From Pseudidiomarina andamanensis (GTDB lineage: Bacteria > Pseudomonadota > Gammaproteobacteria > Enterobacterales > Alteromonadaceae), in contig NZ_CP032551.1 of the NCBI RefSeq assembly GCF_009734345.1, forward strand, positions 1,650,001 to 1,682,000: DNA of 32,000 bases, read 5' to 3'. Positions 5,657 through 30,212 of this stretch are shown piece by piece. The position numbers and the translations under genes are program-made. A model generated the notes under the pieces. The model saw only the letters and a list, made by a program, of their open reading frames with translations, was not told the DNA's origin and made no database searches. Numbering within the stretch: the first letter of the stretch is position 1; each line of letters starts with the position of its first letter.

Positions 5657-5793
5657 CGTTGTTCGTTATTGGTTATTCGTTATTCGAAAGAGCGAAGAGC
5701 GAAAGAAGAACTGCGTGGTTCGTGCTTCGTGCGCTACGCTGTTTGTTTAGGCTTTCGCTTTTCCGAATAACGAATAACGATTAACGATTAACG
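5657..5793. repeat. Long imperfect inverted repeat built from short tandem units; probable RND-operon terminator or insulator
   Basis: The left arm is CGTTGTTCGTTATTGGTTATTCGTTATTCGAAAGAGCGAAGAGCGAAAG (5657-5705). The right arm is GCTTTCGCTTTTCCGAATAACGAATAACGATTAACGATTAACG (5751-5793), whose reverse complement aligns with the left arm. The right arm ends on the RND stop codon. Confidence 0.6.
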
Positions 5794-8700
5794 CTCTCGA
5801 GCAGTCCGGCGCCGCAGGAGCGACGCGTATAGGAGCGGAATGACTATCAGCGTTAACGCTGTCGAGACCGCAATACCAAAGATCAGGCTGACGGCCAGCC
5901 CGTTAAAGATGGGGTCATCGAGGATGAAGAATGCGCCCATCATGGCGGCGATTGCGGTCAGGGTGATTGGTTTGGCGCGCACGACGGCGGCTTCTATCAC
6001 GGCGGTGTTGAGATCTTTGCCGGCGGCGACTTCTTCACGAATGAAGTCAACGAGCAAGATGGAGTTCCGCACAATGATGCCAGCCAGCGCAATCATGCCG
6101 ATCATGGAGGTAGCGGTGAATTGCGCACCTAAGAGGGCATGGCCTGGCATAATACCAATCAGTGTGAGTGGTATTGGCGCCATAATGACTAGCGGAGTCA
6201 TGTAGCTACCAAAATGACCTACAACAAGCACGTAAATCAGCAACAAACCGACCGCATAAGCGAGGCCCATATCACGGAAGGTTTCGTAGGTGATTTGCCA
6301 TTCGCCGTCCCACTTCAGTGCGGTTTGATCCCAAATGTCGGGTTGTGCGATGTAGGTTTGTGGCAGATCGATGTCACCTGCGGCATCGAAGAGGCCATAC
6401 AGTGGGCTATCGAGTTCGCCAGCCATATCCGCGGTCACATACACAACGGGGCGTAAGTCTTTGTGATACATCGGTTGCGCGTACGGGCGTTGCTCACGGT
6501 TAATGAGCTCAGCAATTGGAATTGCTTCGCCGGTGGTTTGACTGATAACCGTGAGGCTTTCGAGCTGTGCCAGTTGCCCTTGCCAATCGGCAGGGAGACG
6601 TAACTTCACTGGTACTGGTTGCGTTTGGTCAGGAATCGCCAAGTAGGTGACATTCATGCCACCAAGCGCCGTTTGTAGCACTTGCACCACTTGTGCCGCA
6701 GTAACGCCAAGTTGCGCGGCACGTTCACGATTTACTTCCCATACTTCTTCGGTGGCTTCAGCCACAAGCGTGCTGTCGATATCAACCACACCCTCGGTGG
6801 CACGTAACTGTGCGAGCACGTCACGAGCACCCAGTTCGCGTGCTGCGGCCGATGGGCCGTACACTTCGGCGACAATCGGGGCAAGCACTGGCGGACCAGG
6901 CGGCACTTCAACAATTTTCAACGATGCACCAACGGCTTCAGCAATTGGCGTGAGCATGGGTCGAATTGCTAAAGCAATTTCGTGGCTGGCACGGTCGCGC
7001 TCACCAAGTTCCGCGAGGGTGACTTGAATGTCACCCATGTTAGCGGCTTCGCGCAAATAATACTGACGCACAAGCCCATTAAAACCAATAGGCGAAGCGG
7101 TTCCGGCATAGATTTGAGTGGCAACCACTTCATCCACCTCATCCAGCTTCTGCGCCAATTGCATGAGTGTCGCGTTGGTCTCTTCTAGGCTGCTGCCTTC
7201 TGGCATATCCAGCACCAATTTAATTTCACTTTTATTATCAAACGGCAGCATTTTCATCACCACCGCTTGCACAACCGCAAGGCCCATCATGGCGACGATA
7301 AGAACAATCAACCCAAAGCCCATGAAATAGCGACGTTTCCGATGCGTCAGCAACGGCTGCATGATGCGCTCGAAGAAGTTATGTAGCTTGCTGCTATGTG
7401 CTTCGCCTTCATAGTGTTCGTCTTTGAGTAAGTGACGTGCCAACCACGGCGTGACCGTCAGGGCGATAATCAGCGACAGCAACATACCCAACGATGCGTT
7501 AATTGGGATTGGGCTCATGTACGGGCCCATCAAGCCACTCACAAACGCCATCGGTAGCAGGGCAGCAATAACGGTAAAGGTTGCCAAAATGGTTGGCCCA
7601 CCAACTTCGTCAACTGCGGCCGGAATCGAGGTTTTCAGTGATTTGCCCAAACCTAAATGACGGTGAATATTCTCCACCACCACAATCGCGTCATCAACCA
7701 AAATACCGATGGAGAATATTAATGCGAACAACGACACGCGGTTTAGCGTAAAGCCCCATGCCCACGATGCAAACAAGGTCATCGCCAGTGTAAGCACCAC
7801 GGCACTACCAACCACAACCGCTTCGCGTTTACCAAGCGTGAGTAGCACCAATGCCACCACCGAAATGGTTGCAAAGATGAGCTTTTGAATGAGCTTGGAT
7901 GCTTTATCGTCAGCCGTTTGACCGTAATTTCGCGTGACATCGATGGCGAGTTCTGGCGGCAACCATTGCTGCTTCAACGTATCGAGGCGAGCTAGTACTT
8001 CCTGCGCCACCACCACCGCGTTTTCACCGGCTTTTTTAGTGACGGCAAGCGTCACCGCTGGCTGCGCTTCACCACTCGCTGGACGCGACCACACGTAACG
8101 GGATGGGACCACCGCGCTACCGCTGATTTCAGCCACTTGTTCAAGGCGAACGGGCTTGCCATCTACATTGGCAACGATTAGATTGCGCAAGGTGTTCACG
8201 CTGTCAATAAAGCTACTCGCTTGTACAGGAATTTGCTGACCTTGAGCCAAGCGGTAACCCGCTTGCGCGCTCTGATTCTGGCCTGCCAATGCTTGGCTCA
8301 CCGCGTTAAAGTCTAGCCCGATGCGGCTCAGTGCGGTGTTGTCGAGGGTCACGTTAATCTGCTCTGGCTCAGCACCAATCACCTTCACTTCACGAACACC
8401 GCTAACGTTTTGCAGCGGCTCAACCAAAGTGTCAGCAACCGATTTCAGATCAAGCCCATCGGCGGTAATCGTTAGTCCAAGAATCGGAACATCATCGATG
8501 CCTCGGGCCTTCACCAACGGTTGTGAGAAATTCGGGTGGCGCACTTGCCAACTCGCGAGACTATCAAAAAGTTCGACGAGCGCTTTATCACGCGGTACGC
8601 CAACTTCAAATTGCACCGTCACCAAAGCTTGGCCGGGTTGTGATACGGAGTAAATGTGCTCAATACCCTGCATGCGTGCAAAGTGTTGCTCAAGCGGCGT

Positions 8701-8916
8701 TGCAAGTTGATTTTCAACCTGACTAACAGCAGCCCCAGGAAATGCCACCATGACATCGGCCATGGTTACGTCGATCTGTGGTTCTTCTTCACGCGGCGTT
8801 ATCAACGCCGCCATGATGCCGAGAATCAGGCCAAAAATTGCCAGCAATGGCGTGAGCTGAGAGCGTTCACCCCATGCCGCAAATTTACCTGCGATACCAA
8901 GGGGTTTATTACTCAT
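5788..8916 (-). CDS. RND-family efflux transporter, inner-membrane permease subunit
   Basis: 1042-aa ORF with the AcrB-like layout: an N-terminal TM helix, two large periplasmic loops and 12 predicted TM segments. It overlaps the adaptor gene by 8 nt. Confidence 0.95.
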   Translation of the reverse strand: MSNKPLGIAGKFAAWGERSQLTPLLAIFGLILGIMAALITPREEEPQIDVTMADVMVAFPGAAVSQVENQLATPLEQHFARMQGIEHIYSVSQPGQALVTVQFEVGVPRDKALVELFDSLASWQVRHPNFSQPLVKARGIDDVPILGLTITADGLDLKSVADTLVEPLQNVSGVREVKVIGAEPEQINVTLDNTALSRIGLDFNAVSQALAGQNQSAQAGYRLAQGQQIPVQASSFIDSVNTLRNLIVANVDGKPVRLEQVAEISGSAVVPSRYVWSRPASGEAQPAVTLAVTKKAGENAVVVAQEVLARLDTLKQQWLPPELAIDVTRNYGQTADDKASKLIQKLIFATISVVALVLLTLGKREAVVVGSAVVLTLAMTLFASWAWGFTLNRVSLFALIFSIGILVDDAIVVVENIHRHLGLGKSLKTSIPAAVDEVGGPTILATFTVIAALLPMAFVSGLMGPYMSPIPINASLGMLLSLIIALTVTPWLARHLLKDEHYEGEAHSSKLHNFFERIMQPLLTHRKRRYFMGFGLIVLIVAMMGLAVVQAVVMKMLPFDNKSEIKLVLDMPEGSSLEETNATLMQLAQKLDEVDEVVATQIYAGTASPIGFNGLVRQYYLREAANMGDIQVTLAELGERDRASHEIALAIRPMLTPIAEAVGASLKIVEVPPGPPVLAPIVAEVYGPSAAARELGARDVLAQLRATEGVVDIDSTLVAEATEEVWEVNRERAAQLGVTAAQVVQVLQTALGGMNVTYLAIPDQTQPVPVKLRLPADWQGQLAQLESLTVISQTTGEAIPIAELINREQRPYAQPMYHKDLRPVVYVTADMAGELDSPLYGLFDAAGDIDLPQTYIAQPDIWDQTALKWDGEWQITYETFRDMGLAYAVGLLLIYVLVVGHFGSYMTPLVIMAPIPLTLIGIMPGHALLGAQFTATSMIGMIALAGIIVRNSILLVDFIREEVAAGKDLNTAVIEAAVVRAKPITLTAIAAMMGAFFILDDPIFNGLAVSLIFGIAVSTALTLIVIPLLYASLLRRRTARER

Positions 8917-9856
8917 AGCTGATCACCTCGCCAGCCTTCAGACCACTCACAACTTCCACCAATCCGTCTTCACTTAAGCCCAAACGCACCGCGCGCCAGC
9001 TGTTGTCTTGCATGCGCACCATGGTGAGTTCACCTTGGTTATAGATAGCTGCAGTAGGCACTTGCACACCTTCATGTTCACCAACTTTTACCAACACTGG
9101 CTGCCATTGTCCCGGCATAAAGCTGCTGTCATGCGGCAATATGAGTCGCATGCGTACGGTGCTTGATTGACTGTGTACCGTAGGAAATACCTGTTGTGCG
9201 GTTGGCTCAAGGCCATTTACGCGTGCCCATTGATATGTGGTAGCCGGCTGGGCATAGCGAGCAGGCAGGTCGACATGCAAACGCAGTTCAGTCGGATCAA
9301 AGCCTGACAATAATGGTGTGCCCGGTTGCACTAATTCACCTGGCTCCACCAAGCGTTCGCTGACAATACCGCCATAAGGTGCCTTCACTTCAGTGTAACT
9401 GAGTTGTTCTTCGGCGCGCTCCACCGCTGCTTCTGCGGAACGTAGTTGAGCTTTGGCATTATCGAGGCGAGCTTTGGCGCGGTCCCGCTCGGCGGCTGGC
9501 AACAACTCACGTTCAACCAAGCTGGTTACCCGATCAAACTCTTGTTGTTCGGCAACCAGTGTTGCTTTTGCGGCAGCCACTTGCGCTTGCGCTTGGGTTA
9601 GCATTTGATACTGCTCAACTGAGGTAATTGTCACAAGCGTTGCGCCAGCTGGCACATTGTCACCCACATCGACCACTACTTTTTCAACACGACCAGACAC
9701 TTGCGCTGATACAGTGGCGCTATTGGTTGACTCCACCAAACCTTGCAAGCGCAAGTATTCAGAAATGGTTGTTGGTTGAACTTGATACTCAGCTGCGACA
9801 GCGGACGTCGCGGCACTGGCAACAAAAAGGGCGATTGCCCAAGCACGCAATGACAT
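8909..9856 (-). CDS. RND efflux periplasmic adaptor (membrane fusion protein)
   Basis: Signal peptide MSLRAWAIALFVASAATSAVAAE, an alpha-hairpin coiled coil (AQAQVAAAKATL...AKARLDNAKAQLRSAEAAVERAEEQL), and barrel-sandwich and beta-barrel segments. I moved the start to the second ATG (9856) because AAGGAG sits directly against the first ATG (9862). Confidence 0.88.
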   Translation of the reverse strand: MSLRAWAIALFVASAATSAVAAEYQVQPTTISEYLRLQGLVESTNSATVSAQVSGRVEKVVVDVGDNVPAGATLVTITSVEQYQMLTQAQAQVAAAKATLVAEQQEFDRVTSLVERELLPAAERDRAKARLDNAKAQLRSAEAAVERAEEQLSYTEVKAPYGGIVSERLVEPGELVQPGTPLLSGFDPTELRLHVDLPARYAQPATTYQWARVNGLEPTAQQVFPTVHSQSSTVRMRLILPHDSSFMPGQWQPVLVKVGEHEGVQVPTAAIYNQGELTMVRMQDNSWRAVRLGLSEDGLVEVVSGLKAGEVISYE

Positions 9857-9866
9857 ATTCATCTCC

Positions 9867-9966: not shown

Positions 9967-11637
9967 TTAAATACCGAAATCATCGTAGCGTACCTGCTCA
10001 GGTGGTACTCCAATTTCGTCGAGCATCGCTCGGGTTGCTGCCAACATAGCTGGTGGTCCGCACACATAAACATCTAAATATTGCGTGTCTTGCGTTTGCA
10101 ACCAGGTTTTCGCAATGTCATGAACATAGCCACTCAACCCACGCCATGTGGCATCGTGCTCTGAAATAACAGGGTGATATTGCAAACGCTGCTGTTCTTG
10201 TAGTGCCATGAACTCATCGACGTAGCATAGCTCCGATTGATTTCGAGCCCCGTAGAAGAACTGAATTGGCGCCTGTATTTCGGCCTCTTCCAATGCTTCT
10301 TGAATGAGCGCACGTAATGGCGCAATACCTGCTCCGCCGCCAATAAACACTTGTTGACGTTCGCCTCGAGCGGCGGTATTGAGCAGAAAGTCACCCATCG
10401 GACCCACAGCGTTTATGGTTTCACCAACTTGCATTCCACACAGATACGTTGAACCGACGCCCGGCTGGCATGACGTATCTGGAGCAGGCATTTTACGAAC
10501 GGTAAAGGTAAGTTCAGGTTGCCCTGGCGCCGTTGCGAACGAATAGTTGCGATGCAAAATAACAGTACCTCGGCTCGCTTCACACGGAATTAGGAACTGC
10601 ATAAACTGCCCCGCTTGATAGCTAAATGTCGAGGCATTTTTCGGCAGGAACGTTAATTCATGAATACTCGGGGTCAACACTCGGTTATGTACCAGTTTGA
10701 GTGTCAGTGTGCGCGTATCTGTTTGTAAAAGATCGGCGTTGTTGTCTTTGCATACTCTGTGCTGGCAACTTAAACGTAACCCCTCACGAAGTTCAGATTC
10801 AGATAACATCACTCTGTCACTTTCGGTCGCAGATGGTGCTGTTCCCTTAAAGCGCACTTTGCAAAGTCCGCATGTTCCGCCGCCACCGCAGGCACTCGCT
10901 ATCGGCTTCTGCTGTGCTTGAAAGAACTCTAGGTAGGTCTGTTTGCGGCGAGGGTTCATGTCACCGCGTACCACATTACGCCCGAGCAAAATGAGTCCTG
11001 ATAAGGTAAACCACAGTGTCAGCACACCCGCACTGACAATCAGTAAATGGTTAAAGTTACGCTCACCGCTATAGTCCATGAAGTGCAGTTTGAACGCCCA
11101 ATCAGCCCATAACCACGGTGTGTTTCGATGCTCAACCACAGCACCGGATGCGGCATCGATGTAAATTCGAGTATTCAAATCATCGCGAATGTCGACACGA
11201 TAGCCAGGCTTAAGCCAGCCGTTTACTTCATTGCTACCGGCTGTTAGCCATGTGATTTCGGCAATGTCACCGGGGCCTGAATAACTTGCCAGAGCCAAGT
11301 TCGCTGCCATCATTTCAGTTGTTGACCAAGGCTTTCCAGTCGATGCATCAAGATAACTGACACCTTTAGCATGCTCGACAACGTATTGTGGCGTGCCAGC
11401 CACTGTTCGTAACTGAACATCGCGAATACCAGCAAATTGATTTGATAACTGCGGCCAGTCAAGCGCCTGCGATGATTGCATTGGCGTATGATTGTGAGTC
11501 ATTTTGTAATAATGGTGGCCCGACATTGCATGATGGCCTGCTATCGAGAAGTAAAAGCCACTGATTATCCACAAGAGAACTTGAATGATGATGATTAAAC
11601 TGGTCCAGCGGTGTAGCCACTGCAAAAAGCGCATCAT
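9967..11637 (-). CDS. PepSY-TM membrane protein fused to an NqrF-like [2Fe-2S] ferredoxin / FAD / NAD(P)H oxidoreductase module
   Basis: 556 aa. The N-terminal half has WLHRW followed by a TM helix, a roughly 150-aa periplasmic segment, then KLHFMDY followed by a second TM helix. Next come the CGGGGTCGLC...LSCQ cluster motif, RNYSFA (RxYS FAD site), GVGSTYL, FIGGGAGIAPL (NAD(P)H site) and VYVCGPPAM. Its start overlaps the upstream paralog by 4 nt (ATGA). Confidence 0.85.
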   Translation of the reverse strand: MMRFLQWLHRWTSLIIIIQVLLWIISGFYFSIAGHHAMSGHHYYKMTHNHTPMQSSQALDWPQLSNQFAGIRDVQLRTVAGTPQYVVEHAKGVSYLDASTGKPWSTTEMMAANLALASYSGPGDIAEITWLTAGSNEVNGWLKPGYRVDIRDDLNTRIYIDAASGAVVEHRNTPWLWADWAFKLHFMDYSGERNFNHLLIVSAGVLTLWFTLSGLILLGRNVVRGDMNPRRKQTYLEFFQAQQKPIASACGGGGTCGLCKVRFKGTAPSATESDRVMLSESELREGLRLSCQHRVCKDNNADLLQTDTRTLTLKLVHNRVLTPSIHELTFLPKNASTFSYQAGQFMQFLIPCEASRGTVILHRNYSFATAPGQPELTFTVRKMPAPDTSCQPGVGSTYLCGMQVGETINAVGPMGDFLLNTAARGERQQVFIGGGAGIAPLRALIQEALEEAEIQAPIQFFYGARNQSELCYVDEFMALQEQQRLQYHPVISEHDATWRGLSGYVHDIAKTWLQTQDTQYLDVYVCGPPAMLAATRAMLDEIGVPPEQVRYDDFGI

Positions 11638-12377
11638 AGCGACCCCCCGGTATTAATTTTTGGATTTGGTTTCGTTTTACGAAGGGTATAGACCAACAGC
11701 ACTGCGCCAGTAATTAGGAAAATGAAATTGGCAATAATAAAGCCTCGTAGCAACCAACTTTCAATATCAACGCGCTCTTCATAATCCATAATGTGCAACA
11801 TCCACATAATGTCGAAGCCACGCCAGAATGTATGCCGTTTCGTGACGAGTTCGCCCGTTATTGGTGAAAAGTAAAGGCTGGTGCTTCCAAAATCATCAAA
11901 ATCGACTCGCCATACGGGCAAGTGTACGGGGTTTAATTCTGTTGGCGGGTTGTCAGCTAACCAATCAATACGACTTGCCGGCTGCTCACCTAAAGCATAT
12001 TTCTTTTCAGCAATAGCCTTTATTGCAGCTTGATCAAGACGAATCGATTCTAGGCTTTTGGCATCAATGAGCTCAACACTACCGTGATGACTGACGTGAT
12101 AAACTGGGTGCCATTGATTATTGAGCCACAACGAGGTCAATTTGATGTCGGATGCCTCAGGATATTCGCTCAATACGTGACTAAACGAGGCAACAGATTG
12201 CGTATCCTGAATAACGGCATCATGTTGTTTAACCAAATGATCACCGTGAATAAATGGCAATTTGAAAAATACCATGTAAGCACCACTGATACTCCAAACC
12301 ACCATTTGCAAACCAACGATTAGCGCCAGCCATCGGTGCCACACGCGCCAACGACTACTGGCAATTGTTACCGACAT
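11634..12377 (-). CDS. PepSY-associated two-TM membrane protein (paralog of the N-terminal half of the downstream fusion)
   Basis: VWHRW plus TM1, a periplasmic PepSY-like region, then MLHIMDY plus TM2. I set the start at the ATG at 12377 (GGAGAG SD 4 nt upstream) rather than the TTG at 12389. Confidence 0.8.
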   Translation of the reverse strand: MSVTIASSRWRVWHRWLALIVGLQMVVWSISGAYMVFFKLPFIHGDHLVKQHDAVIQDTQSVASFSHVLSEYPEASDIKLTSLWLNNQWHPVYHVSHHGSVELIDAKSLESIRLDQAAIKAIAEKKYALGEQPASRIDWLADNPPTELNPVHLPVWRVDFDDFGSTSLYFSPITGELVTKRHTFWRGFDIMWMLHIMDYEERVDIESWLLRGFIIANFIFLITGAVLLVYTLRKTKPNPKINTGGSL

Positions 12378-12397
12378 AAAACTCTCCAAAAAGTTTT

Positions 12398-12429
12398 AAA
12401 AAAGCGAGAGGATCTTTCGACCCCCTCGC
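12398..12429 (-). terminator. Intrinsic terminator or attenuator after the TonB-dependent receptor gene
   Basis: The minus strand reads GCGAGGGGGTCGAAAGATCCTCTCGC followed by TTTTTTAAAAC. It is a GC-rich stem with one mismatch and a T-tract, 17 nt after the receptor stop. Confidence 0.6.
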
Positions 12430-12445
12430 AATTCAACGTCCAGGG

Positions 12446-15154
12446 TTAGAACGTGTAACGCATTTTAATAAATAACTGACGCCCTAAAAGGTTATACGTC
12501 ATGGTATCGGTGTTGGCATCCGTCCAGCTTTGAATAAATGGCGGTTGTTTATCAAACACGTTGTTAATACCACCAACTAAGCTCATGTTTGAGTTCACAT
12601 AATAGGTGCCCTGCACATTATGGTAGAACACGCTTGGCGCATGATCTCCAATGTCACCTGGCGCCGCATTAATATCGTCAGCGCCACCAATGTATTGAAC
12701 GCTCCAGTGCGCCTGCCAGTCATCGCGATCAACTGTAACCGATGCATTTGAACGCCAGTTCGTGTAGCTACCGCTGCCTCCAGTGATTTTTCCGGCATAG
12801 GCAATTGGTGTACCACCGGCGAACGGCGTCACAGTATATTCATCGAGGTAACTGACTGTCCAATTCATCGTGGTTGCAAAACCAGATAAGTCAGTTTTAT
12901 AGAATACTGCAGCATCGATACCCGACACTTCTTCTGTTGCCGCGTTAGTCGGTTGCGCCGATAGAAAATCAATTTCACCCGTTAAGCTATCGCGCGTAAA
13001 TTGACTATCGTTACAGAACGGATGGGATAGATTTTCCGAGTTGTAGCAAACCGATAATTTGGTTGAGCCCGGAATACGCTGAATCGCATTCTCGATATCG
13101 ATTTTATAATAATCGATGGTGAACTGTAAGTTTTCTGCGAACCAAGCATCCCAAACTGCGCCAGCTGTAAATGTTTTCGCGTCTTCAGGTTCAAGATTAG
13201 GGTTACCGCCAACAGTCGTCAGAATTGTTGAACCAAGTTGCGTATAACCTGCCGGTACACCATCTGCTTGACAGTTTGCCGCAACTGTTGGATTTTTGCC
13301 TGGCTGATCCCAACCATCACAAGGATCGGTCGTGGTTAAATTCCCTTCGGCTACGCCACCAAACAATTCAGGAATATTCGGTACACGAAACGCCGTTGAA
13401 TTGGTTGCTCGAAGTTTGAGGGCATCATTAATCTGCCAATGTAAACTGGCTTTATAGTTGCCGTCGCTGCCAAACGTATCATAGTCGCTGTAGCGATAGG
13501 CAAGTTCTAAATTTACGCTTTGTGCAAACGGAACATCATTCAGTAGTGGCAAGGCTGTTTCTACGTATACTTCATCAACACTATAGCTACCGCTAATAGG
13601 GTCTGCTTGGTTGGTATTCATCACACCAGCTACAACTGCCGAATCTGGATTCCGCCAGCCTTTTTCTTGACGATGCTCGATCCCGAAAGCGACCGGAACA
13701 TAACCTGATGGTAGTTCAAATAAATCACCAGTAATATTTGCTGTGATTGAACGCTGCTCGTTACCGCCTTCGGAGTCAATCCGGAACATAATGTAGTCAA
13801 TCGCATCTTGACCGAAGCCACCGAAGCCAAGCAAATCGACGCATGGCACGCCAGATTGTCCGCATTGTTCTGGGTCAATTGCTCTACCTAAACGTTCCAT
13901 ATTCGCAATATTGGTCGCGCCATCAATACCTGATGTACGCCCGAAGTTGTAAGCGACTTCCCAGTTCCAGTTGGCATCAATCGTACCGTTCAAGCCCCCA
14001 ACGAATCGCCAAGTATTGACGTCTTGGAAGAAATCTCGAGTTCCGGCTTCGAGCAAGCGACGACGATCGAGTTGAATCGCCTCGCCGGTGGGGTTATCTG
14101 GATGATCTGCAGCATATTCAATACCGCCAACAGTTCCCGAAGTGGCAATTTGATCCGACCGACGATTGTTATAAAGAACTTCAACGAACGCATAAGTGTC
14201 ACCAACCAATCGATAGTCTGCAAAGGTTGAGAAGTTCCAGTTAGTAATTGGGTTCACAGAATTTAGCTGTGAGAAGAAATCAAAGTTATGCTTGGCCGGA
14301 TCATATGGTTCGTAGAAATCACTATCACCGCCGGGTTCTTGATTAAAGTTAATTCGACTTCCCGCATCTGGTCCCGTGAGGATTGTTGCACGGCCGCCGA
14401 TGGTACTTGAGCTGCCGAAACATCCTAGCTCGCCCGGAGCTACCTCAGCTAATGCGCAACCTGCTTGATCTTGCATGTTATAAGCATCGCTTGATCGATA
14501 TCCGACGGTACCAACAATTCGAGCTCGGTCATTACTTGCGCCAAATACCGTGTTGATAGCTCGTTCTTGAGCATCGCCACTATCCGTTGCGCCAAAACGT
14601 GCTTCGATAGAAAAACCTTCATAACTCTTGCGGGTAATAATATTCACAACACCAGCAACAGCGTCAGCCCCGTAAATTGCTGATGCACCATCTTTAAGCA
14701 CTTCGATGCGTTCAATCATCTCAACCGGAATCATATTCAGGTCAACGCTGCTATTGGCACCGGTACCGCCATTCACCACGCGGCGGCCATTGAGAAGCAC
14801 AAGTGTACGGTTAATACCTAAACCACGCAGGTTAACTTGTGCAGTGCCCCAGCCATTACTGGTCCAGTAGGCATTGCTTTGTCCACCAGCAGCGCCGGCG
14901 GAAGCCGACATTCGTTGTAAAATAACTTCTAACGAATTCACACCGGAATTTTCAAGATCTTCTGCGGTAAAAACTTGGATAGGTGCGGCACTCTCGGCTT
15001 CAGTACGCTGCAACCGTGAACCAGTGACGGTGACACGTTCAACTTTTTCCTCATCAATTTGAGCCTGTTGTTGCGTATCTTGAGCCATTGTTTGTACGGG
15101 TAATACTAACGCTGTTAGTGCGGTCGCTACGCCCGATAAAGCGAATTTAGTCAT
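12446..15154 (-). CDS. TonB-dependent outer-membrane receptor
   Basis: 902 aa with signal peptide MTKFALSGVATALTALVLPVQTMAQD, a TonB-box-like VERVTVTGSR, a plug domain (RIEVLKDGASAIYGADAVAGVVNIITR), a long beta-barrel and a terminal aromatic residue (MRYTF). Confidence 0.95.
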   Translation of the reverse strand: MTKFALSGVATALTALVLPVQTMAQDTQQQAQIDEEKVERVTVTGSRLQRTEAESAAPIQVFTAEDLENSGVNSLEVILQRMSASAGAAGGQSNAYWTSNGWGTAQVNLRGLGINRTLVLLNGRRVVNGGTGANSSVDLNMIPVEMIERIEVLKDGASAIYGADAVAGVVNIITRKSYEGFSIEARFGATDSGDAQERAINTVFGASNDRARIVGTVGYRSSDAYNMQDQAGCALAEVAPGELGCFGSSSTIGGRATILTGPDAGSRINFNQEPGGDSDFYEPYDPAKHNFDFFSQLNSVNPITNWNFSTFADYRLVGDTYAFVEVLYNNRRSDQIATSGTVGGIEYAADHPDNPTGEAIQLDRRRLLEAGTRDFFQDVNTWRFVGGLNGTIDANWNWEVAYNFGRTSGIDGATNIANMERLGRAIDPEQCGQSGVPCVDLLGFGGFGQDAIDYIMFRIDSEGGNEQRSITANITGDLFELPSGYVPVAFGIEHRQEKGWRNPDSAVVAGVMNTNQADPISGSYSVDEVYVETALPLLNDVPFAQSVNLELAYRYSDYDTFGSDGNYKASLHWQINDALKLRATNSTAFRVPNIPELFGGVAEGNLTTTDPCDGWDQPGKNPTVAANCQADGVPAGYTQLGSTILTTVGGNPNLEPEDAKTFTAGAVWDAWFAENLQFTIDYYKIDIENAIQRIPGSTKLSVCYNSENLSHPFCNDSQFTRDSLTGEIDFLSAQPTNAATEEVSGIDAAVFYKTDLSGFATTMNWTVSYLDEYTVTPFAGGTPIAYAGKITGGSGSYTNWRSNASVTVDRDDWQAHWSVQYIGGADDINAAPGDIGDHAPSVFYHNVQGTYYVNSNMSLVGGINNVFDKQPPFIQSWTDANTDTMTYNLLGRQLFIKMRYTF

Positions 15155-15226: not shown

Positions 15227-15238
15227 TTGTCTATACAT
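15227..15238. promoter_or_regulatory. HutC-operator-like dyad TTGTCTATACAT
   Basis: 10/12 identical to the perfect palindrome TTGTATATACAA in the hutC-hutI intergenic region. The core is TGTC-TA-TACA versus TGTA-N2-TACA. It lies 18 bp upstream of the putative -35. Confidence 0.3.
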
Positions 15239-15315
15239 CTACAACATAGCGAGTTTTAAAGCTCTGTAAAGTTAAAAGTTAAACAAGTTGTCTACTTTTA
15301 AGGCTTATACGCCGG

Positions 15316-15327
15316 TTGTATAGTCAA
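15316..15327. promoter_or_regulatory. Second, weaker HutC-operator-like dyad TTGTATAGTCAA
   Basis: 10/12 identical to TTGTATATACAA, but both mismatches fall in the right core half. It lies 89 bp from the first site. Confidence 0.2.
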
Positions 15328-24682: not shown

Positions 24683-24931
24683 ATGAGTGATAATTTATCC
24701 GCCCAGCAGTTGTTACGTATTCGGAGTAAGCTTGAAGCCGTGGTAAACGAGCAACCAGGAACGCGTCAAGCGCTTAGTGCTGATGCTGCCCTGCAACGCA
24801 TGCGCAGTGGCGAGTATGGCTATTGTGTTGAGTGTGGCGAGGAAATTTCGGCGGCACGTTTAGCAGCAAAGCCTGACGTCGCTTTGTGTGTCGACTGCCA
24901 GGCTCTCAAAGATGAAGAAGAGGACGCTTAA
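24683..24931 (+). CDS. DksA/TraR-family C4 zinc-finger protein (82 aa)
   Basis: [25 protein letters not shown] is a CxxC-N17-CxxC finger. It has a GAAGGA SD and starts 13 nt after the yiiD stop. Confidence 0.8.
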
Positions 24932-24939
24932 GCGTCCTC
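24920..24939. repeat. Perfect 20-bp palindrome GAGGACGCTTAAGCGTCCTC spanning two convergent stop codons
   Basis: Self-complementary over all 20 nt. The central CTTAAG holds TAA on both strands. Confidence 0.9.
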
Positions 24940-26469
24940 GAGTACTGCCCCTTCCTGCACTAAGTTGTGCAATTTACCTTGTTCAATTAACGCCGCAATT
25001 GCGGCGATATCTGGCGCAAAATAACGGTCTTGATCATAAAAGCTCACTTGTGCACGTACCCGTGCGTGGGCTTCCTCTACTGCCGCTGCGGCTTTGAGTG
25101 GACGACGGAAGTCTAAACCTTGCGCTGCTTCCAATAGTTCAATGGCGACAATGTCACGAATGTTGCGCGCAATGTCGGTTAAACGACGCGCCGCAAACGT
25201 TGCCATTGATACATGGTCTTCCTGGTTTGCCGAGGTTGGCAAGCTATCAACGGATGCTGGGTGAGCCAGTGTTTTATTTTCCGACGCCAATGCAGCAGCG
25301 GTGACCTGCGCCAGCATAAACCCAGAGTTGACGCCACCGTCGTTCACCAAAAATGGCGGTAAGTTACTCAGATGGTGGTCAATCAATAACGCGCTACGAC
25401 GCTCTGACAGCGCACCAATTTCGCTCGCGGCAATCGCGAGAATATCGGCAGCCATAGCAACTGGTTCAGCATGGAAGTTACCACCTGAAATAATGTCGCC
25501 GTTGTCACTAAACACCAGTGGATTATCAGTGACACCATTGGCTTCACGTACCAAAATTTGGCTAGCATGTTGCAACTGATCGAACACCGCGCCCATCACT
25601 TGTGGCTGACAACGCAATGAATAAGGGTCTTGTACTTTTTCGCAATCCACGTGAGCCGTAGCAATTTCAGAGCTATCGCCCAATAATTGACGGAAGCTTT
25701 GCGCAACAGCAATTTGCCCCGGCTGACCACGCACGGCATGAATACGCGCATCAAACGGTGAGCGTGAACCCATCGCTGCTTCAACAGCCATAGCGCCAGT
25801 AACAAGTGCGGCGTTGAACACACGTTCAATTTGGAACAAGCCATGCAATGCTAGGGCAGTTGAGGCTTGGGTGCCGTTCAACAATGCCAAGCCCTCTTTC
25901 GGGGCTAATGCGCTAAGTGGCTTCAGGCCGGCCTTCGCCATTCCTTCAACCGCTGGATAAATTTTGCCTTCTACACGAACTTGGCCTTCACCAAGTAACG
26001 GCAGTACAAGATGCGCTAATGGCGCTAAATCGCCCGACGCCCCAACCGAGCCTTTGCTTGGCACACACGGGTAAACTTGGTTGTTGAGTAAATCAATCAA
26101 CGCGTCAATCACTTCATGGCGAACCCCAGAAAAACCACGGCTGAGTGAGTTGATTTTTAGCAACAGCATTAGGCGCACCACGGTGTCATCCATAAGCTCT
26201 TGCGTACCTGCGGCGTGCGATAGCACGATGCGGCGTTGTAGATCTTCTAGTTTTTCCGGTGGAATACGAGTATTTGCTAATAGTCCGAATCCGGTATTAA
26301 TGCCATACACAACTTTGCCTTTGGCAAGCACATCAGCAACGGTTTGGTGCGAGCGTGCAATCACCGCATTGGCATAAGCATGTAGCGCTAATTTTTGTGG
26401 TTCTTGCCACCACTGACGTAGCTGCGACAGGCTCAAGGTGCCAGGTTGCAATTCAAATACTTCATTCAT
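24928..26469 (-). CDS. hutH: Histidine ammonia-lyase
   Basis: 513 aa with the MIO-forming [14 protein letters not shown] motif. Its start abuts the hutU stop. Confidence 0.97.
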
Positions 26470-28146
26470 TTAGTTGCCCTCCAGCATTGGTAAGTCTAAC
26501 CCTTGATCACGCGCACAATCTTTCGCAATGTCATACCCCGCATCAGCATGGCGCATCACGCCGGTACCCGGATCATTCCAAAGTACCCGACTTAAACGCT
26601 GATCGGCAGCTTCGGTACCATCGGCAACAATCACTACACCTGAGTGTTGTGAGTAACCCATACCGACGCCACCACCATGGTGCAGGCTCACCCATGTAGC
26701 GCCGCCCGCGGTATTTAAAAGAGCGTTCAATAATGGCCAATCTGAAACCGCATCTGAGCCATCCAGCATACTTTCTGTTTCGCGGTTCGGACTAGCAACA
26801 GAGCCTGAATCGAGATGATCGCGACCAATGACAATCGGCGCTTTGAGTTCGCCATTTTTGACCATGTCATTGAATGCTCGCGCGATACGTGCGCGATCTT
26901 TGAGGCCAATCCAACAAATACGTGCTGGCAAGCCTTGGAAACTAATGCGCTCACGCGCCATATCTAACCAATTGTGCAGGTGTGGGTCGTCAGGAATGAG
27001 TTCTTTCACCTTCGCGTCGGTTTTGTAAATATCTTCCGGGTCGCCTGACAACGCCACCCAGCGGAATGGACCGATACCTTGGCAGAAAAGCGGACGGATA
27101 TACGCTGGCACGAAGCCTGGGAAATCAAACGCATGATCGACGCCAACGTCTTTCGCCATTTGACGGATATTGTTGCCGTAATCTAAGGTCGCTGCACCGC
27201 GCTCTTGTAGCGTTAACATGGCACGCACCTGCACTGCCATTGACTGCTTCGCTGCCGCGACAGTGCCGGTTGGGTCACTCTCTTGGCTCTCAAGATATTG
27301 CTCGAGCGTCCAGCCTTGCGGTAAATAGCCGTGCAATGGATCGTGTGCAGACGTTTGGTCGGTGACCACATCTGGGGTGATATTGCGCTCAACCAACTCG
27401 GCATAAACATCGGCTGCATTACCGAGCAATCCGACAGAAATTGCACGGCCTTCTTCACGCGCTTGTTCAAGTAATTTCAGCGCGTCGTCTAACGAAGTCG
27501 CTTTGTGGTCGAGGTAACGGGTGCGTAAACGAAAATCGATACGTGTTTCGTCAACATCCACTGCCAACATGCAATAACCAGCCATAGTTGCCGCTAGTGG
27601 CTGTGCGCCGCCCATACCACCGAGGCCACCAGTAAGAATCCAACGGCCTTGGGTATTCCCCTCAAAATGCTGACGTGCCACGGATACGAAGGTTTCGTAG
27701 GTGCCCTGTACAATGCCTTGCGAGCCAATATAAATCCATGATCCGGCGGTCATTTGGCCGTACATCATCAAGCCTTTTTTATCGAGCTCGTTAAATTGTT
27801 CCCAATTCGCCCACTCGGGTACTAAGTTTGAGTTAGCGATTAATACTCGCGGTGCATCTTCATGAGTCGGGAACACGCCAACCGGTTTACCCGATTGCAC
27901 CAACAACGTTTCAGTTGGTTTCAGTCGTTCAAGTACTTCAACAATTTTATCGAATGCTTCCCAACTGCGCGCCGCTCGGCCAATACCACCATAAACTACG
28001 AGTGCTTGCGGATGCTCGGCTACCTCGTCATCGAGATTATTCATCAGCATGCGTTTGGCTGCTTCAATTTGCCAGTTTGCCGTGGTTAGCTCTGAACCAC
28101 GGTCAGCGCGGATCTTTCGGCTTTTATCTAAGCGGGTAAAACTCAT
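26470..28146 (-). CDS. hutU: Urocanate hydratase
   Basis: 558 aa with [18 protein letters not shown] (tightly bound NAD site). It is colinear with HutU. Confidence 0.97.
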
Positions 28147-28172
28147 CTGTTTATCCTTTTTCTTACTTGCGT

Positions 28173-28871
28173 TTAAGCTTTAAACGTTAAATGGCCACCC
28201 AACACAAAGCGTGAGCCTGGGTGCGTCAATACGGCATAAGTCACCACACCAGCATCACTCCAAGTGCGACGCACAATGCGTAAACATGGCTCTGGCTTAT
28301 TCAATTCCAGCCATTCGCACACGTGAGCGTTTGGTGTCACCGCTTCAATTTGATGACTTGCTTCGGTCAGCGGGGCAACGGCACTTAAGTATTCATGCGG
28401 CGTGATTTGACGAAAATCTTGCTTCAAATAATCTTCGACGATAGCAGGATTAACGTAGCGCTCTTCAACCTGCACCGGTAATCCATTCTCAAGATGGGTA
28501 ATCACCGAATAATAAACGGGACTTTCCGCTTCTATTTGAAGTTGTTCTGCCACCTGCAAGCTCGCTGGCACTTGCCTGAGTACATGCACGTGCGCTTCAT
28601 AATCGTGCTGACGAGCACGAATTTCGTCGGCAATGTTGCGAATGGCCATAAACGACGTCTGTGACTTCAGTGGTGCGACGTAGGTGCCAGAGCCTTTCGA
28701 GCGAATCACTAGGCCTTCGTCAGCAAGCTCCTGTAACGCTCGACGTGCGGTCATACGACTCACTTTGAACTGAGTCGCTAGCGCATTTTCTGAACTTACA
28801 GGATGATTTTCAGGCCACTCACCCGAAGCAATCTTGCTATAAATATGCTGTTTGATTTTTGAAAATTTCAC
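28173..28871 (-). CDS. hutC: Histidine utilisation repressor, GntR/HutC family
   Basis: N-terminal GntR winged HTH ([39 protein letters not shown]) plus a UTRA effector domain, 26 nt upstream of hutU. Confidence 0.9.
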
Positions 28872-28976
28872 GAACGTTCTACCTATGTGGTTACCGCTTT
28901 GGCTACCTTAAAAAAGCAACCGTGATCAAATCATTCAGACTAATGTTAGAGTGTGATAGAGTGTAGTCATCTTTAA

Positions 28977-28988
28977 TTGTATATACAA
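28977..28988. promoter_or_regulatory. HutC operator candidate, perfect palindrome TTGTATATACAA
   Basis: Lies in the 138-bp hutC/hutI divergent region. The core TGTA-TA-TACA matches the TGTA-N2-TACA dyad I recall for Pseudomonas HutC. It sits 21 nt upstream of the hutI ATG. Confidence 0.6.
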
Positions 28989-29009
28989 GTTGTCGGTGGG
29001 AGATTTTTT

Positions 29010-30212
29010 ATGACAGCAACCATGCAGCGCCTCGAGAACGTTCAGCTTGCCACCATGACAGGCGAGGGCTACGGCCTGATTAATGATGGTGTGATTATCT
29101 TTGATCATGAACAAATTCACTTCGCTGGTCAGCGCAGTGACGCACCAATGGTTGCCGCCGAAACAATCAACGGCAACGGCGGCTTAGTCACTCCCGGACT
29201 CATTGACTGCCATACTCACTTGGTTTGGGCTGGTTCGCGTGCCGATGAGTTTGCTAAGCGTTTACACGGTGTTAGTTATGCCGACATTGCGGCTCAAGGT
29301 GGTGGTATTGCGGCAACGGTGCGAGCAACGCGAGCGGCGTCAGAGGAAACTTTGGTTAAGGTGACAATGCCTCGGCTTAAAGCTTTGTTGCGCGAAGGCG
29401 TCACAACCGTTGAAATAAAATCGGGCTATGGCTTAAGCCTTGAAGACGAGCGCAAACAACTGCGCGCTGCACGTCAACTTGCCGACTTGTTGCCGGTATC
29501 CGTTCGAACGACGTTATTGGCAGCACATGCCGTACCACCTGAATATAAAAACCAAGCGGATGCCTATATTGATTTAGTGGTTGAATCAATTATTCCGACA
29601 CTAGCTGTCGAAGGCTTAGCAGATGCCGTGGATGCATTTTGTGAATCGGTGGGTTTTACCACAGCGCAAACCGAACGTGTGTTTCAGGCCGCTCAAGCTG
29701 CTGGTTTGCCAGTAAAATTACACGCTGAACAATTAAGCAACCAACATGGGAGTGCGCTTGCTGCCCGCTACCAAGCATTGTCGTGTGACCATCTCGAATA
29801 CTTAGATGAAGCCGGTGTTGAAGCCATGGCAAAGGCCGGTACTGTTGCGGTGTTGTTGCCGGGCGCGTTTTATTTCCTACGAGAAACCAAACAGCCGCCA
29901 TTGCAACTGTTGCGCGACTACAACGTGCCTATAGCGGTATCGACTGACGCTAACCCCGGCACGTCACCAATTTTGAGTGTTCAACTCATGCTGCAGATGG
30001 CAGCGACGTTGTTCCGAATGACGCCTGAAGAATGTCTACGTGGGGTAACTGTGAACGCCGCAAAAGCTTTAGGTTTGAGCGATCGCGGTCAACTGGCTGC
30101 AGGTATGCGCGCTGATTTGTGCTTGTGGGATGTCGACGATCCAGCTGCGCTCACCTATCAGTTTGGTACCAATCCGTTAAGCGCTTGCTGGTATCAAGGT
30201 TCGCGTCGCTGA
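29010..30212 (+). CDS. hutI: Imidazolonepropionase
   Basis: Start trimmed to the ATG at 29010 (GGTGGGAG SD 6 nt upstream). It is an amidohydrolase with the DCHTHLV metal site. Length is 400 aa. Confidence 0.95.

Follow-up and report, generated by a model that had tools for sequence, protein, structure and literature searches.

In the 32-kb stretch of Pseudidiomarina andamanensis DNA analysed here (the window), the gene of a TonB-dependent receptor (TBDR) is followed on the minus strand by the genes of two membrane proteins, one of 247 residues (A) and one of 556 residues (B). A and the N-terminal part of B are paralogs that each resemble one half of the membrane module described by the Pfam family PepSY_TM, and B continues into a soluble reductase module with iron-sulfur, flavin and NAD(P)H-binding domains. 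We consider here what the A/B pair might do and how it might be related to the receptor encoded in front of it. The three genes and the parts of B are as follows.

15154..12446, minus strand: TBDR gene, an open reading frame (ORF) of 902 residues with a Plug domain and a 22-strand barrel (Pfam Plug, TonB_dep_Rec_b-barrel)
12377..11634, minus strand: A gene, an ORF of 247 residues with another possible start (TTG) at 12389; a half PepSY_TM protein, predicted to run from N-in through a first transmembrane helix (TM1, residues 17-38), a periplasmic PepSY domain and a second helix (TM2, 208-233) to C-in
11637..9967, minus strand: B gene, an ORF of 556 residues
10963..11637, minus strand: B residues 1-225, the second half PepSY_TM module and paralog of A (TM1 10-34, PepSY domain, TM2 197-223)
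10750..10941, minus strand: B residues 233-296, an NqrF-type [2Fe-2S] ferredoxin domain with a shortened N terminus (Pfam Fer2)
10030..10698, minus strand: B residues 314-536, FAD- and NAD(P)H-binding domains of the FNR fold (Pfam FAD_binding_6 and NAD_binding_1)

Two putative half PepSY_TM proteins and a reductase module

The ORFs and motifs on which a sequence-only reading of this DNA had been built are all found in the translations, VWHRWLALIVGL and WLHRWTSLIIII included, together with MLHIMDYEER, KLHFMDYSGER, CGGGGTCGLC...LSCQ, RNYSFA, GVGSTYL, FIGGGAGIAPL and VCGPPAM. At the A/B junction (...TCG CTA TGA TG CGC) the TGA stop of A lies within the ATG-A of B, which bears out the ATGA overlap claimed in that reading, and the two genes are translationally coupled as judged from this arrangement.

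A matches PepSY_TM (PF03929/COG3182; profile length 295, curated cut-off 28.8 bits) with residues 13-234 over profile positions 3-162 at 27.1 bits. B matches it with residues 7-222 over positions 2-160, the first half of the profile only, at 26.0 bits. All 45 sampled members of the A family match PF03929 at E ≤0.01 (best 5e-10), the B homologs P0044 (41.2 bits) and P0071 (29.3 bits) lie above the cut-off, and fused relatives with four TM helices score 57-77 bits. No NCBIfam family is matched by A, whose sequence is 100% identical to that of a Pseudidiomarina andamanensis protein. The paralogy of A with the N-terminal part of B, proposed earlier from shared motifs, is confirmed by BLASTP, which aligns A with B residues 9-230 at 25% identity over 228 residues (E 1e-17).

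The soluble part of B consists of Fer2 (residues 233-296), FAD_binding_6 (314-417) and NAD_binding_1 (431-536). Its best solved relative among the PDB sequences is Vibrio cholerae NqrF (E 2e-39), so that the assignment of an NqrF-type 2Fe-2S/FAD/NAD(P)H module stands. All tested traits of NqrF-like modules are present in B: the four cluster Cys, RxYS, GxGxxP, CGP and the C-terminal aromatic residue. The cluster residues C250, C256, C259 and C291 are invariant or nearly so (at least 97% conserved) among 91 B-type homologs, and the same level of at least 97% holds for each of the motifs R363/Y365/S366 (FAD), G435/G437/P440 (NAD), C526-G527-P528 and the C-terminal F554. NqrF, the subunit of Na+-NQR, is the best match of B in NCBIfam, among PDB sequences and among PDB folds; it shares with B the order of a TM helix, a CGGGGxCGxC...C ferredoxin, FAD and NADH domains, and the FAD/NADH domains are 36-42% identical. 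B differs from NqrF in its score (173.8 bits with nqrF, TIGR01941, its best NCBIfam family, under the equivalog cut-off of 295), in the additional TM helix and PepSY domain in front, and in its ferredoxin, which in this clade lacks the first two strands. Moreover, no nqr genes were seen in the window, and nqrA-E were not seen in the annotated neighbourhoods of the homologs. An exact-sequence look-up of B found it not on record. The homologs are annotated in databases as 'NADH:quinone oxidoreductase / NqrF' or as 'PepSY domain protein', and the family is uniformly mis-annotated under these two names.

The shortened ferredoxin is a feature of the Idiomarina/Pseudidiomarina clade, which accounts for 45 of the 91 B sequences and lacks 20-28 residues that form beta1-beta2 in longer homologs. 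Only 30 residues separate TM2 from the first cluster Cys in the clade of the window, with all four Cys retained. The site of the shortening lies at 10852-10977 of the window (B residues ~221-262).

Pairing of the halves and probable kinship with FoxB

A and B each contain exactly two hydrophobic helices and a single PepSY region. Lys and Arg abound in the N-terminal stub and behind TM2 in both families, while the periplasmic flanks are acidic. This positive-inside charge bias indicates an N-in/C-in topology and therefore a cytoplasmic reductase module in B, on the side of the membrane where the sequence-only reading had placed it.

A profile of the A family recovered 80 loci from species-representative genomes. 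A second half-PepSY_TM gene directly follows A in every one of them, and the order is always A and then B. The second gene carries the reductase in 57 of these loci, and about 17 pairs keep both halves without any reductase. The two halves also occur as natural fusions: about 19 single chains of 800-850 residues comprise A, B and the reductase (for example, in Aliikangiella, Psychrobium, Hyphococcus and an alphaproteobacterial metagenome-assembled genome), and at least six A+B proteins of 468-488 residues are without it. The N-terminal module of B aligns to the second half of natural A+B fusions. Confident AlphaFold models were obtained for a fusion of 843 residues (mean pLDDT 90.5, pTM 0.72) and for an A+B protein of 476 residues (pLDDT 91.5, pTM 0.87).

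The four His residues that had been proposed as heme ligands are conserved throughout, with A-H14 and A-H195 kept in 119 of 119 A-type homologs and B-H9 and B-H185 in 90-91 of 91 B-type homologs; their equivalents in the fused forms (H11, H189, H260 and H438) are invariant. The tandem halves at all 80 loci and the A-B(-reductase) fusions that keep the four His favour the earlier idea of an A/B heterodimer, and comparison of these sequences gives good support to the view that A and B are an obligatory pair of halves acting together. Since the halves are paralogous, each with a His at either face of the membrane, two hemes could also be held in a symmetric dimer, so that A and B might form A2 and B2 homodimers and lie side by side only because they serve a shared pathway. 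We regard this as very improbable, given the universal pairing in a fixed order that the fusions retain, the translational coupling of the window genes, and the fact that A and B are distinct families with invariant motifs of their own, IHGDH and RHxFWRxFD being peculiar to the A family and absent from the B family.

These A-specific motifs contain further His residues on the periplasmic side. A-H44, within IHGDH, is 97% conserved, A-H182 98% and A-H47 71%, and the counterparts in B are more weakly conserved (H35 85%, H170 82% of the 91 homologs). The segments concerned, IHGDHL at A residues 43-48 (window ~12234-12251) and RHTFWRGFD at 181-189 (~11811-11837), place the extra near-invariant His by the proposed ligand of the outer heme. 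Judged by this conservation, they could form a metal site for the substrate.

The membrane half has many relatives. Among 1.84 billion representatives searched, 901 matches (clusters at 50% identity) were found at E ≤1e-3 and 486 at ≤1e-10, and at least 573 relatives occur among species-representative genomes; the family extends over alpha-, beta- and gammaproteobacteria and Rhodothermales. Among the relatives, single as well as double halves occur, and both kinds are found with the full reductase, with Fer2 alone or unfused. Those with Fer2 and no FAD/NAD part include P0067, P0290, P0301 and P0311 (among others, 310-357 residues) as well as L047 and L077. The electron source thus appears modular, as judged from the Fer2-only and reductase-free relatives. 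Fer2 is always the membrane-proximal part of the fused relatives, and this position, together with the modular architectures, fits a role of Fer2 as the direct donor to the membrane module.

In a fold search with the full fusion, the top 50 hits were all NqrF and other FNR folds, and a reductase-free relative with four TM helices was therefore modelled instead. Using Foldseek with this A+B model, we found Pseudomonas aeruginosa FoxB (7ABW), the di-heme periplasmic ferrioxamine reductase described by Josts et al., as the sole match in the PDB with E <0.001 (E 1.5e-5, probability 1.00), colinear for about 490 columns over the whole chain with low TM-scores (0.32-0.40) and a root-mean-square deviation (r.m.s.d.) of 12-14 Å. 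FoxB and A/B appear to belong to the same Pfam family, their TM helices flank periplasmic PepSY domains, both have a conserved His where each TM helix begins, two per membrane face, and the foxB gene likewise adjoins that of a TBDR. Neither A nor B by itself combines four TM helices with two PepSY domains, and a four-helix unit exists only in the A+B pair or in the fused relatives; the pair and the fused forms both have the four conserved His expected of axial ligands, two close to either face of the membrane. FoxB is a single chain with four TM helices and no fused electron donor, whereas A/B is made up of two chains with two TM helices each, one of them with a 2Fe-2S/FAD/NAD(P)H module. The context of FoxB is ferrioxamine, that of A/B copper and histidine.

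We propose, with a probability that we put at roughly 0.55, that A/B is a split cytochrome b of the FoxB (PepSY_TM) type with a built-in NAD(P)H donor, which reduces a metal in the periplasm. Each half would provide two TM helices, the first starting N-in, with the periplasmic PepSY domain between them, and a pair of invariant His, of which one lies at the cytoplasmic and the other at the periplasmic face. A and B together could then form a four-helix bundle holding two b-type hemes. Electrons would pass from NAD(P)H via FAD and [2Fe-2S] to the inner heme, from there to the outer heme and finally to a periplasmic metal held beneath the PepSY domains.

The close relation of B to NqrF allows a different explanation. 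In a fused homolog (model of P0066, residues ~450-843, aligned to 7xk3_F), the TM2-Fer2-FAD-NAD segment is colinear with full-length NqrF including its N-terminal TM anchor (408 columns, TMt 0.77, 37% identity). Because the last TM helix and the soluble module correspond so continuously to NqrF, B may have originated, as far as the model can tell, by placing a TM1-PepSY unit before an NqrF-like protein. Such a TM2-anchored module might simply reduce an acceptor in the membrane or the cytoplasm, such as quinone, with the PepSY halves acting as sensors in the periplasm, cooperating with the TBDR or aiding histidine or metal transport. The database annotation as NADH:quinone oxidoreductase and the weak TM-score of the FoxB match are compatible with this explanation, and regulon work of the RegPrecise type labels a HutC-regulated neighbour of a TBDR of this kind an 'optional component of omp transporter'. 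On the other hand, conservation in both halves peaks at the His of the two membrane faces, a feature shared with FoxB, CrpH and MsrQ-type cytochromes, about 17 pairs without a reductase still keep both halves, and the homologs with annotated neighbourhoods showed no nqrA-E nearby. We consider an arrangement without a heme conduit distinctly unlikely.

The split cytochrome with its own donor, as we propose it, would share a working principle with other enzymes. In the eukaryotic ferric-cupric reductases NOX/FRE/FRO and in bacterial MsrQ with Fre, cytoplasmic NAD(P)H and flavin supply electrons to a stack of two b hemes, which are bound by His pairs within a helix bundle and pass the electrons on to an extracytoplasmic acceptor. 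By analogy, the proposed A/B path would be functionally similar, and functionally only, since A/B differs in its unrelated membrane fold, in an additional [2Fe-2S] step and in its two chains. Ferric_reduct (PF01794) has no Pfam match in A or B, and NAD_binding_6 is found only below threshold (20.4 bits, cut-off 22.2), in agreement with the earlier view that the parts are unrelated to those of NOX/FRE.

That the electron donor of PepSY_TM proteins is generally not encoded in the same polypeptide, as the sequence-only reading had it, needs to be qualified. Josts et al. (2021) noted COG3182 members fused to sulfite reductases, Meheust et al. (2021) listed 1077 PepSY-like genes that also encode an NAD-binding domain and suggested that NADH is the donor, and a survey of the Brucella flavoproteome reported a PepSY_TM/flavodoxin/FAD/NAD cluster. 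The CysJ-like fusions ('sulfite reductase flavoprotein') resemble B in combining a membrane module with a cytoplasmic NAD(P)H-dependent reductase and a proposed NADH donor. They carry a diflavin (FMN and FAD) module on a full-length PepSY_TM, whereas in B an NqrF-type [2Fe-2S] and FAD module is joined to half a PepSY_TM, the other half being a separate protein. The idea is therefore not wholly new, because bioinformatic remarks have already drawn attention to NAD-binding or sulfite-reductase-type domains in PepSY-like proteins. We found no characterised example of the split NqrF-type variant in the literature searched, and to that extent the claim of novelty stands; new, compared with the published remarks, are the division into two chains, an iron-sulfur module of the NqrF type, and the association with copper and HutC. 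The A/B family is widespread, and with a donor fused to what would be a FoxB-type periplasmic reductase, the chain from NAD(P)H to a periplasmic metal becomes testable with two genes.

Copper genes, the hut link and the possible substrate

Reference proteins from annotated neighbourhoods were searched against the 80 loci, with a range of 10 kb for copper genes. At least one copper gene (CusCBA/F, CopA ATPase, CueR, multicopper oxidase, DUF411, cupredoxin or CusRS) was found within 10 kb at 45 of the loci, which fall among L005-L008, L021-L022 and L032-L086. Outside Idiomarinaceae the fraction is 38 of 57. The link to copper holds with or without a TBDR (30 of 48 and 15 of 32 loci, respectively), and A-B directly follows cusA with a gap of less than 70 nucleotides (nt) at four loci that have no TBDR. 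The FecI/FecR pair (FecIR) was found at 3 of the 80 loci, and genes for siderophore synthesis or ferrous-iron uptake were not found among the neighbour genes screened for at these loci.

All characterised PepSY_TM reductases act on ferric siderophores, and a TBDR gene lies directly upstream of A. A/B might accordingly be a reductase of ferric siderophores or other Fe(III) chelates in iron uptake, like FoxB, FpvG and FsrB with a built-in NAD(P)H donor, in which case the TBDR would bring in a ferric chelate and A/B would free Fe(II) in the periplasm. Such a role would suit three related loci, where FecI/FecR accompany a TBDR that has a signalling domain, and some loci with HupE or DUF4198. The counts of neighbouring genes point the other way, with 45 loci for copper and three for FecIR. 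No Fur box occurs in the window at up to three mismatches, the conserved operator of the TBDR is HutC-like and not Fur-like, and the TBDR matches no siderophore receptor family at its curated cut-off. We consider a role in iron uptake unlikely. The ferric-siderophore setting of the FoxB/PiuB type, which the sequence-only reading had invoked, thus has little in its favour here; the copper setting of the oprC partner, named alongside it, agrees with the copper genes and the HutC-type operator. Taken as a whole, the split-conduit architecture of that reading is favoured by the sequence comparisons, its siderophore context has little backing, and its statement about the donor needs qualification.

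If the proposed mechanism holds, we see about an even chance that the substrate is Cu(II), which is favoured because the module sits in cus operons and copper islands of many lineages. Cu(II) would be reduced to Cu(I) and handed over to the Cu(I)-specific systems Cus, CopA and CusF. Such an activity would supply a dedicated enzyme for a step that has long been assumed, the making of periplasmic Cu(I) for Cus and CusF, and it would tie copper handling to histidine catabolism. There is a precedent in CrpH of Bordetella pertussis, encoded beside the copper TBDR CrtA, and in an oprC-linked gene of Pseudomonas, which are PepSY_TM proteins proposed as periplasmic cupric reductases. At the crtA-crpH locus, as in the window, a PepSY_TM gene comes after a TBDR gene, there is no Fur site, copper is implicated, and the His at the proposed heme-ligand positions are conserved. 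CrpH differs in being a single chain with at least four TM helices, in lacking a fused donor and in being tied to the copper supply of heme-copper oxidases, whereas the neighbours of A/B are genes of copper efflux and detoxification and hut genes. The window TBDR appears to belong to a different family from CrtA, with eight invariant Cys and no match to a copper-receptor model.

The route of entry for the metal in this organism would be the TBDR encoded upstream, for which no curated substrate family was found: copper, siderophore and B12 models of NCBIfam are far under their cut-offs, and the OprC/NosA model TIGR01778 reaches 16.7 bits (E 0.0023), where its cut-off is 472. Orthologs of the TBDR lie directly upstream of A at 48 of the 80 loci, in alpha-, beta- and gammaproteobacteria and Rhodothermales, with identities of 46-93% overall and 46-56% between classes, an unusually high conservation. 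All eight Cys are invariant in the window protein and 47 orthologs and look like loop disulfides from the alignment. Neither an invariant Met cluster nor an OprC-like Met/Cys copper site was found among the orthologs. A possible connection to another substrate is suggested by the promoter of the receptor gene and by the histidine utilization (hut) genes of the window.

15227..15238, minus strand: predicted HutC-type operator ATGTATAGACAA, core TGTATAGACA, just past the -10 box of the TBDR promoter
15243..15270, minus strand: promoter-like site TTTACA, 16-nt spacer, TATGTT (consensus scan)
24928-26469, minus strand: hutH (Pfam)
26470-28146, minus strand: hutU (Pfam)
28173-28871, minus strand: hutC (Pfam)
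28977-28988: hut operator TTGTATATACAA, a perfect palindrome in the hutC/hutI intergenic region
28977-30212, plus strand: ORF of an amidohydrolase, likely hutI (Pfam)

The hut locus as a whole (24928..30212) lies 10 kb from the TBDR promoter. The box in this promoter matches the window's own hut operator TTGTATATACAA, and exact matches to TGTNTANACA occur only twice in the 32 kb, in the TBDR promoter (15228) and in the hut operator (28978). Of the 48 promoters of TBDR orthologs, 31 have a HutC-type box at the same relative position, where shuffled sequences would lead one to expect 0.3, and the loci that have it include alpha- and betaproteobacteria and a Rhodothermales genome. Furthermore, hutU, hutH, hutG, hutI and a HutC-like regulator lie beside TBDR-A-B at no fewer than 12-15 loci, where other copies of the box occur at hut promoters only. 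Sixteen loci are hut-adjacent (L040, L041, L045, L046, L049, L051, L052, L054, L066, L071, L072, L076, L078, L081, L082 and L085); hut enzyme genes, with hutF among the genes found, are present at 13 of them and a HutC-like GntR/UTRA regulator at all 16, and one, L045, has A-B without a TBDR. In Hyphomonas, cusCBA, TBDR, A, B, hutC, hutUGHI and hutF follow each other within one 20-kb stretch. A link to hut was found at 35 of the 48 loci with a TBDR and at 1 of the 32 without, and the hut link therefore goes with the TBDR and not with A/B alone.

From these conserved sites, the TBDR appears to be under HutC control. The regulon survey of Leyn et al. (2016) described a HutC-regulated TBDR 'omp' together with 'Caul_2357' in Caulobacterales and Sphingomonadales and suggested possible histidine uptake. 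By the description of the regulon, this is like the window, a TBDR with an accessory gene in a predicted HutC regulon, but the prediction covered three genomes, and the accessory gene was neither named a reductase nor tied to copper. Links between histidine and metals have also been published for the import of a His-Zn complex through Hut and for a histidine transporter in a copper resistome.

Given the apparent HutC control of the receptor, a complex of Cu(II) with histidine may be the form in which the metal arrives. Going one step further, the HutC-controlled TBDR might import histidine as its Cu(II) complex, which A/B would split by NAD(P)H-driven reduction of Cu(II) in the periplasm. In oxic water, histidine would come largely as the Cu(II) complex; once freed, it could enter the Hut pathway, and Cu(I) could leave by efflux of the Cus or CopA type. 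We hold this extension only tentatively and rate it as improbable on present evidence, although it is consistent with all three associations and, if true, would account for the module occurring in cus operons here and behind a hut-linked receptor there. A/B would then be the first dedicated, self-powered periplasmic cupric reductase, and bacteria would have a way to feed on a metal-chelating amino acid without self-poisoning.

Several observations weigh against the proposal of a split cytochrome b acting on a periplasmic metal, and against copper as that metal. The fold match to FoxB has TM-scores of 0.32-0.40 and an r.m.s.d. of 12-14 Å, and FoxB was not reached when the PDB was searched by phmmer with A or a natural A+B fusion, or by hmmsearch with a profile of 45 A sequences. 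The window proteins themselves, at 27.1 and 26.0 bits, stay just under the PepSY_TM cut-off. The two beta strands missing from Fer2 in this clade make cluster binding less certain than in the longer homologs. No copper gene is present in the window, and among Idiomarinaceae copper genes were found at only 7 of 23 loci. Finally, a few loci carry FecIR, HupE or DUF4198, contexts that are typical of iron or nickel uptake.

Expression of the locus and minor observations

The adjacency of A and B to the TBDR gene, as stated in the sequence-only reading, is correct, but the 68-nt gap between the TBDR gene and A contains a GC-rich hairpin with a T-run. This candidate and the remaining features of the window are the following.

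12394..12429, minus strand: GC-rich hairpin (11 pairs) with a T-run between the TBDR stop and the A start, a candidate partial terminator or attenuator
15287..15322, minus strand: conserved half-boxes TATACAAC (15322..15315) and TAGACAAC (15294..15287), from a phylogenetic footprint of Idiomarinaceae promoters
5788..9862, minus strand: RND adaptor (317 residues) and permease (1042 residues), a generic RND pump by Pfam and NCBIfam; a neighbour, probably not a core part

A strong hairpin stands just past the TBDR stop in nearly all orthologous loci (L010-L088), its structure being kept while the sequences are unrelated; in Idiomarinaceae it is followed by the T-run. The gap is too short to hold a promoter ahead of A. 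With the hairpin and T-run between the TBDR gene and A, the three genes need not be made in equal amounts, and, judging from its conservation, the hairpin is probably a partial terminator that sets expression of the TBDR high and of A/B low.

The hexamers TTTACA and TAT(G/T)GT are conserved upstream of the Idiomarinaceae TBDR orthologs. The two half-boxes lie upstream of this core promoter, the first of them overlapping a TTGACT hexamer; from their conservation, they may be auxiliary half-sites of HutC or sites of a second regulator. The third conserved box of the TATACAAC type in the same promoters is the one that matches the hut operator, a near-palindrome, TTGTATA(A/C/G)ACAA, just after the conserved -35 and -10 boxes. 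A MerR/CueR-like dyad seen by eye in the promoter was dropped in favour of the conserved HutC-type box. The window and the TBDR leader were also searched for a riboswitch, since BtuB is the best match of the TBDR plug domain and a B12 riboswitch could have been expected; neither has an Rfam match.

The genes of the RND adaptor and permease begin 104 nt downstream of B. The CusA/CzcA model scores below the multidrug models of NCBIfam for the permease, and such a pump follows B only in the three closest relatives among the 80 loci (L010-L012). It was dropped as a core part of the system because it is not of the Cus type and is confined to these relatives. The pump might conceivably export a ligand or a metal from the periplasm. 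The Gig system of Cupriavidus was checked as a possible known equivalent of A/B and proved unrelated.

Some genomes carry two copies of A/B: L011 and L024 lie on one Pseudidiomarina contig, L048 and L056 belong to Microbulbifer, and L082 and L085 to Lysobacter. A TBDR accompanies only one of the two Pseudidiomarina copies, and both copies in Microbulbifer and in Lysobacter.

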